This document shows positions 6,072 through 8,009 of a stretch of DNA of 14,318 nucleotides, piece by piece (within the stretch, counting starts at the first letter, position 1; each line of letters opens with the position of its first letter). The stretch is taken from positions 1 through 14,318 of IMG/VR virus record IMGVR_UViG_2778261064_000005; one strand, written 5' to 3'. Source of the DNA: a virus. Taxonomy: Duplodnaviria; Heunggongvirae; Uroviricota; Caudoviricetes. The position numbers and the translations under genes are program-made. A model generated the notes under the pieces. It was not told the origin of the DNA. It searched no databases and saw nothing but the letters and a program-made list of their open reading frames with translations.

Positions 6072-8009
6072 GTGAATCTTAAACGGGCCTGCTCCCTGCT
6101 GACGGTGAAATCCTTCAGTGAGGATGAGCGGGTGATCACCGGGATTGCGTCAACGCCTTCTCCGGATCGGGATGGTGACATCCTGGAGCCGGAGGGGGCG
6201 GAGTTCGGCAGTGCGATCCCGTTTCTCTGGCAGCATGACCATTCCCGCCCGGTGGGGCAGTGTACGGTGCGCCGGGTCAGCGAAGGGCTGGAAATCACGG
6301 CAACACTGGCGAAGCCTGTGCCGGATATGCCATCGCAACTGGCAGCCCGACTGGATGAGGCCTGGGCGGCCATTAAGACCGGGCTGGTCAGGGGACTGTC
6401 CGTGGGCTTCCGTCCCCATGAATACACCTTTCTGGACGGAGGCGGACTGCATTTTCTGCGCTGGGAACTGATGGAGGTGTCTGCCGTCACCGTGCCCGCG
6501 AATGCGGAATGCACCATCCGGACCATTAAATCTTACGACCGCCAGTTTTCTGCCGCGTCCGGCAACCGGAAACCGGTGGTGAAAATCGCATCTTCTGCCG
6601 GCGCTGCGGCACAGTCAACAACCGTTTTTCATAAGGAAAAGACCATAATGAATATTGGCGAACAGATTAAAAGTTTTGAAAACAAGCGTGCAGCGCTGGC
6701 AGCCTCCCTTGAGGAGGTCATGACCAAAGCCGCAGAGGAAGGGCGCACGCTGGATGTGGAGGAGGAAGAGCATTACGACAACACCGCAGCGGAAATCCGT
6801 CAGGTGGATGCGCACCTGAAGCGCCTGCGTGAACTGGAAGCCGGTAAGGCCGCCACGGCGCAGCCGGTGAAACAGGCCGGTAACGGGAATGTGGCCGCGG
6901 TGGCTTCAGCGCCGGTGATCCGTGTGGAGCAGAAACTGGATAAGGGGATTGGCTTCGCCCGCTTTGCCAAATCACTGGCTGCGGCTAAAGGTGTCCGCTC
7001 TGAAGCCCTGGAAGTGGCCCGTCGTCAGTATCCGGATGACAGTCGTCTGCATCATGTCCTGAAATCGGCAGTGGGCGCGGGGACCACCACGGATCCGCAG
7101 TGGGCAGGCAGCCTGTCTGAATATCAGGAATACGCACAGGACTTTATTGATTACCTGCGTCCGCAGACCATTATCGGGCGATTTGGTCAGGGCGGGATCC
7201 CTGCACTTCGTCAGGTGCCGTTCAATATCCGTGTGCACGCCCAGGTGTCCGGCGGTGCTGCCGGCTGGGTGGGTGAGGGTAAGGCAAAACCCCTGACGAA
7301 GTTTGATTTTGAATCCATCACCTTCAGTCATGCGAAGGTGTCGGCCATTGCGGTACTGACGGAAGAGCTGATCCGTTTTTCCAGTCCGGCAGCTGATGCG
7401 CTGGTCCGTAATGCGCTGGCAGAAGCGGTGGTGGCGCGTCTGGACACAGACTTTGTGGACCCGAAAAAAGCCGCAGTGGCAGATGTCTCCCCGGCGTCCA
7501 TCACCCATGATGTGAAGGGCAAGGCATCAACCGGTAACCCGGATGCGGATGCAGAGGCGGCGTTTGGACAGTTTGTGGCAGCAAACCTGCAGCCCACCGG
7601 TGCGGTCTGGCTGATGTCCAGCACCAATGCCCTGGCGCTGTCCATGCGTAAAAATGCGCTGGGTCAGAAGGAATACCCGGACATGACCCTGCTGGGGGGG
7701 ACCTTCCAGGGGCTGCCGGTGATTGTCTCCCAGTACGTGGGTGACCAGCTGGTGCTGGTGAATGCCCCGGATATTTATCTGGCGGATGACGGCGGCGTGG
7801 CAGTGGATATGTCCCGCGAGGCATCACTGGAAATGCAGTCTGAGCCGACCGGCGACAGTACCACGCCGTCGCCGGTGGAGCTGGTTTCCATGTTCCAGAC
7901 AGGCAGTGTGGCCATCCGTGCGGAGCGCTGGATCAACTGGCGTCGTCGCCGTACCGCGGCGGTGGCGGTGATCACCGGTGTGAACTACGGCAGTGCGTCC
8001 GGCGGCTGA
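6072..8009 (+). CDS. Fused prohead protease (S78/U35) - scaffold-like delta domain - HK97-fold major capsid protein
   Basis: GTG start 5 nt after AGGAGG. Residues 1-160 carry prohead protease motifs (GIASTP..DRDGDIL, PFLWQHD, GLSVGF...ELMEVSAVTVPANAECTI). Residues about 195-280 are charged coiled coil (delta/scaffold-like). Residues about 280-645 look like an HK97-family MCP. No stop between domains. In-frame ATG at 6648 preceded by AAGGAAAAG. Confidence 0.8.
   Translation: MNLKRACSLLTVKSFSEDERVITGIASTPSPDRDGDILEPEGAEFGSAIPFLWQHDHSRPVGQCTVRRVSEGLEITATLAKPVPDMPSQLAARLDEAWAAIKTGLVRGLSVGFRPHEYTFLDGGGLHFLRWELMEVSAVTVPANAECTIRTIKSYDRQFSAASGNRKPVVKIASSAGAAAQSTTVFHKEKTIMNIGEQIKSFENKRAALAASLEEVMTKAAEEGRTLDVEEEEHYDNTAAEIRQVDAHLKRLRELEAGKAATAQPVKQAGNGNVAAVASAPVIRVEQKLDKGIGFARFAKSLAAAKGVRSEALEVARRQYPDDSRLHHVLKSAVGAGTTTDPQWAGSLSEYQEYAQDFIDYLRPQTIIGRFGQGGIPALRQVPFNIRVHAQVSGGAAGWVGEGKAKPLTKFDFESITFSHAKVSAIAVLTEELIRFSSPAADALVRNALAEAVVARLDTDFVDPKKAAVADVSPASITHDVKGKASTGNPDADAEAAFGQFVAANLQPTGAVWLMSSTNALALSMRKNALGQKEYPDMTLLGGTFQGLPVIVSQYVGDQLVLVNAPDIYLADDGGVAVDMSREASLEMQSEPTGDSTTPSPVELVSMFQTGSVAIRAERWINWRRRRTAAVAVITGVNYGSASGG

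Follow-up and report, generated by a model that had tools for sequence, protein, structure and literature searches.

The 14,318-nucleotide stretch of DNA analysed here (the window; positions 1 to 14,318 of the caudoviricete record IMGVR_UViG_2778261064_000005 in IMG/VR) holds the late-gene block of a lambdoid prophage, in which a prohead protease and a major capsid protein (MCP) are encoded by one single open reading frame (ORF) at 6072-8009. This gene encodes, from its N-terminus onwards, a serine protease of the HK97 type, a disordered linker, a scaffold-like delta domain and an HK97-fold capsid body, and it harbors within the same frame a second candidate start codon, preceded by a Shine-Dalgarno (SD) sequence, at the point where the delta domain begins. 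Comparison across a large family of homologues indicates that this internal start is the start of a formerly separate capsid gene, and we consider it probable that the gene yields two products, one with and one without the protease. The features of the gene are as follows.

6061..6066, + strand: Shine-Dalgarno sequence AGGAGG of the full-length product, 5 nt before the GTG
6072..8009, + strand: full-length ORF (protease, linker, delta domain, MCP), GTG start, TGA stop, 645 sense codons, 69.1 kDa
6072..6503, + strand: HK97-type prohead serine protease domain, amino acids (aa) 1-144, a confident AlphaFold domain
6234..6236, + strand: codon of His55 (in WQHD), putative catalytic His
6399..6401, + strand: codon of Ser110 (in GLSVGF), putative catalytic Ser
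6504..6647, + strand: disordered linker, aa 145-192, which houses the internal ribosome-binding site
6633..6637, + strand: internal Shine-Dalgarno sequence AAGGA within AAGGAAAAG (6633-6641), with its end 10 nt upstream of the ATG
6648..6650, + strand: internal start codon ATG (Met193), in frame, codon 193
6648..6869, + strand: delta (scaffold-like) domain, a helical hairpin, aa 193-266
6648..8009, + strand: nested ORF of delta domain and MCP, the predicted second product, 453 aa, 48.3 kDa
6909..8006, + strand: HK97-fold capsid body, aa 280-645, with the MCP body of the AlphaFold model starting from about aa 290

The initial annotation, made from the sequence alone, had read this gene as a protease, a scaffold-like delta domain and an HK97 capsid protein in one ORF, with the full-length form starting at a GTG behind AGGAGG and an in-frame ATG six nucleotides 3' of AAGGAAAAG, and it was right on each of these points, as borne out by Pfam, TIGR01554, AlphaFold and Foldseek and by the positions listed above. 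The sequence reads through ORF 6072-8009 without any stop or frameshift, and the profile phrog_617 (major head protein) covers the 645-aa protein end to end (E 8e-261). In the N-terminal region, for which a hit to a protease family had been foreseen, Pfam Peptidase_S78 (PF04586, MEROPS U35-S78) matches aa 48-153 above its curated cut-off (E 3.7e-8, 34.1 bits against 21), while the stricter protease equivalog TIGR01543 gives E 3.6e-12 at 46.6 bits, below its cut-off of 59. His55 and Ser110, which we take to be the catalytic pair by analogy with HK97 gp4, are invariant in 53 homologues of 38-78% identity. The capsid assignment of the C-terminal region was likewise upheld, by Pfam Phage_capsid (PF05065; aa 386-635, E 2e-14, 54.1 bits against a cut-off of 24.2) and by TIGR01554 (major_cap_HK97; 78 bits against a cut-off of 27.5), which spans aa 12-392 of the nested product.

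An AlphaFold model, built from an alignment of 53 sequences (mean pLDDT 80.7), resolves the same domains, with pLDDT below 50 in the linker (aa 145-191) and above 90 in the two helices of the delta domain (aa 195-223 and 229-262). When this model was compared by Foldseek with the PDB, the matches were HK97-fold capsids, namely Bxb1, HK97, D3, T5 and a gene transfer agent (GTA) (E 1e-14 to 1e-8), with Bxb1 at 1e-14 and HK97 itself at 2.6e-10 to 1e-8. A profile search against solved structures aligned positions 197-264 to residues 4-71 of 9gyi_B, the major head protein of the cf-PICI EcCI2. No solved relative of the protease was found by sequence or profile searches of the PDB or by the fold search with the whole model, all of which returned capsid matches only.

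The origin of the internal start is indicated by relatives in which protease and capsid protein are still encoded by separate genes. Such unfused loci were recovered from Snodgrassella (L025 and L028), Acidovorax (L024) and a metagenomic contig (L121), and all four share the gene order large terminase subunit (TerL), protease, MCP, small ORF and portal. At their junctions the protease gene ends in TAA, followed by a short spacer with GAGAGG, AAAGGA or GAGGG and then by the ATG or GTG of the capsid gene, and the capsid N-termini continue N/T-I/L-x-E-Q-I after the start codon. The product predicted from Met193 and the Snodgrassella capsid protein match from their first residues onwards, five cluster representatives that consist of the capsid part only start at query positions 193-196, and the N-terminus of the EcCI2 head protein also aligns at the Met193 region. 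On the other side of the junction, the part upstream of 6648 aligns at 40% identity with the free 209-aa protease of the metagenomic contig, tail included, and the linker is thus the counterpart of the C-terminal tail of a free protease. Because the two halves align in this way with separate capsid proteins and with a free protease, the alignments identify Met193 as the ancestral start of the capsid gene, and the fusion as the loss of a stop codon with preservation of the frame.

The family in which this can be followed is large. By nucleotide comparison, the gene is 90-99% identical in 93 phage records, with copies in BP-4795 (ORF56, 98% identical to the window gene), phage 2851 (gp17), YYZ-2008, JLK-2012, many Stx1a, Stx2a and Stx2c phages, O157 prophages and Marienburgvirus, and 1255 of the 5426 complete E. 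coli genomes (about one quarter) carry it, in up to seven copies each. The ORF is uninterrupted at a coverage of at least 80% in 92 of the phage records, inducible Stx phages among them, and in 1252 of the complete E. coli genomes. Clustered at 90% identity, the proteins of the family form more than 2400 groups, and at 50% identity (E < 1e-30) about 1200. The fused members of the family reach Enterobacterales, Burkholderiales and Alphaproteobacteria, in many genera. About 140 of the best 150 clusters at 50% identity are fused, with lengths of 630-680 aa, in a ranking that favours full-length matches. When enterobacterial loci were recovered with patterns that did not require fusion, the fused frame was intact in every locus with both parts except for one copy in an Arsenophonus endosymbiont (L020), which is probably decayed.

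In order to follow the internal start at the nucleotide level, we used the DNA of 33 diverse fused genes (32-100% identity) from Enterobacterales, Burkholderiales, one alphaproteobacterium and metagenomes, and four independent lines of evidence, from codon identity, the SD sequence, accessibility and synonymous sites, indicate that the internal start is still under selection. With respect to the codon itself, the residue at the start position is Met in 130, Val in 13 and Leu in one of the 144 fused representatives of the 50% clusters, as read by eye from the protein alignment, while Met is present in only 26% of random 12-residue windows. At the DNA level the codon is ATG, GTG or TTG in all 33 genes, and in the 12 cases without Met the Val is GTG in 11 of 11 (that of Reyranella included) and the single Leu is TTG, a choice with a joint chance of 7e-7 given each gene's own synonymous usage.

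An SD core (GGAG, GAGG or AGGA) ends 6-10 nt upstream of this codon in 31 of the 33 genes, and the remaining two carry AAGGG, against a background of 7.1% for other codons and 6.9% for other in-frame ATG, GTG or TTG codons. The motif is found in differing codon phases (AAG GAA, AAA GGA, CAA GAG GTA, CCG GAG GGC and CTG GAG, read as K-E, K-G, Q-E-V, P-E-G and L-E in the protein), within a linker whose sequence and length vary among relatives, with in-frame indels, and its conservation is therefore at the level of the nucleotides and not of the protein.

The region is also unusually open. The segment from -20 to +20 of ATG 6648 has a G+C content of 0.33, where the gene averages 0.60, and a folding energy of -2.3 kcal/mol, where the gene averages -10.4; each value is among the lowest 2-3% of windows of the gene, and low G+C and weak folding recur at the internal start in most lineages. 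The 86-nt internal start region folds no better than shuffled sequences. Third-position G+C near the internal start is 0.50 against 0.66 elsewhere, with 21 of 24 genes showing the decrease (Wilcoxon p = 3e-6), and in the window gene it is 0.35 around 6648 against 0.67. A scan of viral contigs returned nearly exclusively near-identical E. coli prophages, in which both start regions are invariant across the clade. Since the fused frame has been kept across variable linkers and the catalytic residues are invariant, the read-through product also appears to be maintained, so that sequence comparison points to selection on both.

Two other sources of a short product were considered. A separate transcript from an internal promoter is disfavoured, as no sigma-70-like site was found within 5900-8300, and the short product would therefore arise by internal initiation of translation on the late transcript. 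The ATG of codon 217 (6720-6722, + strand) follows GAGGAGG at a spacing of 2 nt, which is too short, and it is probably not a start; Met217 is invariant among aligned relatives of 73-98% identity.

Taken together, these results favour a model in which two products, of 69.1 and 48.3 kDa, co-assemble through their shared delta-MCP part, a reading that we consider quite likely. Initiation at GTG 6072 would give the 69-kDa polyprotein of S78 protease, flexible linker, delta scaffold and HK97-fold capsid, while initiation at ATG 6648 on the same late transcript would give a 48-kDa delta-capsid protein, equivalent to the entire capsid gene product of the unfused relatives. As both share the capsid and delta parts, they would be expected to assemble together into the procapsid, each long subunit bringing one covalently tethered protease domain inside. 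Proteolysis would then follow as in HK97, with the protease cutting off the delta domains, the linker and itself to leave the mature capsid body. The sequences directly show the domain architecture and the family-wide conservation of the fused frame, the internal start codon and its SD; that both proteins are made and assemble together, in what ratio, and how they are cleaved, down to the loss of the delta domain, is inferred. The nested expression from ATG 6648 proposed by the initial annotation thus gains support, in that the start and its ribosome-binding site are kept family-wide and correspond to the capsid start of unfused relatives.

Several points weigh against this model. The compared sequences share descent, which makes the counts partly dependent on one another, and with frequent switching between fusion and fission some of the signal could come from unfused ancestors. 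The internal SD is of moderate strength (about -5.6 kcal/mol, within the top 10-27% of in-gene positions per single gene), whereas the duplex of the 5' AGGAGG with the anti-SD reaches -10.3 kcal/mol here and -9 to -10 overall, and all 72 close relatives carry this AGGAGG unchanged. With the stronger SD at the 5' start, the long form does not have to be the scarcer product, the role that the initial annotation had given it. Duplex energy discriminates poorly in single genes, however, and tests of motif, spacing and conservation were used in its place. In the searchable literature, we found no protein, ribosome-profiling, N-terminal sequencing or genetic data for any member of the family.

The ratio of the two products may also be shaped at the 5' end, where we note a few weak hints. 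The GTG start overlaps an out-of-frame ATG-TGA start-stop (AGGAGGctgATGTGA, 6070-6075, + strand), which all 72 close E. coli relatives share without change, while more distant Enterobacterales start with ATG, and the RNA around the 5' start forms a more stable structure than that around the internal start. In the E. coli clade, the start-stop overlap could reduce how often translation of the long form begins.

Among the alternatives, the gene might be translated as the full-length polyprotein only, so that a protease would be attached to every capsid subunit, with the internal ATG and SD as non-functional relics of the ancestral start. The difference in SD strength fits this possibility, as does the duplex energy of the internal SD, which is unremarkable in any single gene, and by our estimate 415 copies of the 31-kDa internal part would fill about 40% of the interior of a T=7 procapsid, such that steric exclusion does not arise. 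A relic should decay, however, and the linker around the start has indeed lost conservation of both sequence and length, whereas all 33 genes have kept a start codon, Val being encoded by GTG throughout, 31 of them have kept the SD in shifting phases, and third-position G+C is still depressed at the start. We therefore think it unlikely that the polyprotein is the only product.

Alternatively, both starts might be used without any role in targeting, if the long form cut itself in the linker prior to assembly and the free protease entered non-covalently as in HK97, the fusion then being a neutral loss of a stop codon. The coexistence of fused and unfused relatives with otherwise identical modules agrees with this, and the linker, being disordered and the counterpart of the tail of a free protease, would be accessible to cleavage. 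What argues for selection on the fusion instead is that the fused frame survives many in-frame indels and predominates among the best clusters, as well as in all Enterobacterales loci with both parts bar the Arsenophonus copy; the ranking of the clusters favours full-length matches, however. We give this alternative little credence. That the fusion is a sequencing or assembly artefact, a missed stop, or a decayed prophage gene, for which we found no support, is refuted by the identical architecture in 92 phage records, 1252 E. coli genomes and thousands of clusters, which also settles the missed stop or frameshift that the initial annotation had wished to exclude.

Overall, the two-product model is probable and has strong comparative support. 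It concerns a gene present in about one quarter of complete E. coli genomes, Shiga-toxin phages included, and shared by related prophages throughout Proteobacteria. Use of the internal start, if real, would explain how fusion-type phages of the HK97 kind set the ratio of protease to capsid protein, it would mean that genome annotation overlooks the main capsid precursor, and it would provide a natural design for cargo loading into HK97-type shells, by N-terminal fusion at a tunable ratio. On a wider and more tentative view, for which we see slightly less than an even chance, thousands of genes annotated with the single product 'major capsid protein' or 'protease/capsid fusion' may be nested genes of two products, in which the internal site makes the bulk of the capsid protein and the long form delivers the protease covalently. 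If the two-product reading is true, the stop codon that separates the protease gene from the capsid gene would be an evolutionary switch that is toggled, because the start signals of the capsid gene work in both states.

Around the fusion gene, the window holds the following genes.

Upstream of TerS: holin, lysozyme and Rz region, HNH
3787-4350: small terminase subunit (TerS)
4347-6008: TerL
6072-8009, + strand: protease-capsid fusion ORF
8054-8275, + strand: small 73-aa ORF (phrog_829, no known function), between the capsid and portal genes and overlapping the portal start
8221-9585: portal
9582-10643, + strand: tandem-repeat protein gene, followed by head-tail connector and tail genes

The order TerL, protease/MCP, small ORF and portal (3787-10643 in the window, 1-5398 in the metagenomic contig L121) differs from the usual portal, protease and MCP, and the capsid-before-portal order is kept in fused and unfused relatives alike. 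Distant relatives, both fused and unfused (L116, L118, L121), have a syntenic ORF of 72-76 aa 3' of the capsid gene. In the gap that separates the end of TerL from the fusion gene, a GC hairpin followed by a T-run resembles a terminator (6033-6059, + strand) and falls inside what is expected to be a single late operon. The gene at 9582-10643, joined to the portal gene by an ATGA overlap, encodes tandem repeats of about 30 aa (IPxPxDG[RK]DYDPEVL..., PDDVRPMLEQMVKEAVSH) and a conserved C-terminal domain, and the copy number of the repeats varies, with a protein of 353 aa in the window against 461 aa in BP-4795 ORF59. PHROG and RefSeq name this repeat protein 'portal protein'; Pfam found no portal domain in it.

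The protease-capsid fusion itself is already known and annotated, and what we add, a conserved internal start across the family, varies a classical principle in a modestly new way. The initial annotation held that protease and capsid protein are normally encoded separately, and overstated the rarity of the fusion, which has long been annotated for this gene and is known from Gifsy-2 and many actinophages. The genes of BP-4795 (ORF56), phage 2851 (gp17), YYZ-2008 and JLK-2012 are the same gene with the same neighbours (TerS, TerL, fusion gene, small ORF, portal) and show no material difference; these records annotate a single product and no internal start, and several of the 93 phage records carry the annotation 'putative major head protein/prohead protease'. 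The NCBIfam model NF045541 (scaf_prot_MCP2) bears the name 'prohead protease/major capsid protein fusion protein', and the window protein scores 53.2 bits against its cut-off of 525, so far below that the window gene represents a different fusion family. The 'prohead protease fusion' of a CBASS preprint is a protease-scaffold protein of phage Bas13 and not a member of this family. The searchable literature yielded no account of an internal start in fusions of protease and capsid protein, though an earlier one may exist in Effantin 2010 or Liu & Mushegian 2004.

The protease gp4 and the capsid protein gp5 of HK97 belong to the same Peptidase_S78/TIGR01543 and TIGR01554 families as the two parts of the window gene, and the N-terminal delta scaffold domain of the HK97 capsid protein is removed by the protease (PMC10275583). 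In HK97 these are two separate genes, in the order portal, protease and MCP, whereas the window has one frame between TerL and portal. The Salmonella phage Gifsy-2 has a 'tripartite capsid gene' (Effantin et al. 2010, Virology 402:355, as cited in PMC12315714 and PMC8538268), with protease, central scaffold-like part and MCP in one ORF. It combines CLP_protease with a Phage_capsid_4 MCP in a gene after the portal, as opposed to Peptidase_S78 and Phage_capsid before the portal, it uses a lambda-like decoration protein, and its protease has no sequence relationship to that of the window. In the Gifsy-2 capsid gene (L123, 22471-24561; ClpP domain aa 28-202, MCP aa 389-693), codon 221, just past the protease domain, is an in-frame ATG with GAGGAG at 9 nt, which may be an analogous nested start, as seen in this single sequence. 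Actinobacteriophages of clusters AM, AU, AN, EE and EL routinely carry the annotation 'major capsid and protease fusion protein' in two papers that do not discuss an internal start (PMC5513430, PMC7302621), the first of which also mentions the lambda scaffold-protease fusion. These actinophage fusions share the idea of protease, (scaffold) and HK97 capsid in distant families.

The closest parallel in principle is provided by lambda C/Nu3, P2 gpO, Mu gpI/gpZ and herpesvirus UL26/UL26.5, in which an internal in-frame start in the protease gene gives a shorter protein with the same C-terminus, and this common C-terminal portion directs the protease to the inside of the procapsid. The hallmark of such nested genes, a conserved in-frame internal start with a ribosome-binding site, is found in the window family as well, as far as comparison of the genes can tell. 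Their protease families (S49/ClpP-like, S21) differ from S78, and in systems of the lambda C/Nu3 type the shared part is scaffold only, with a separate capsid gene, whereas in the window it comprises the delta scaffold and the whole capsid protein. If the internal start is used, the principle of lambda C/Nu3 and UL26/UL26.5 would thus extend to the capsid protein itself as the shared part.

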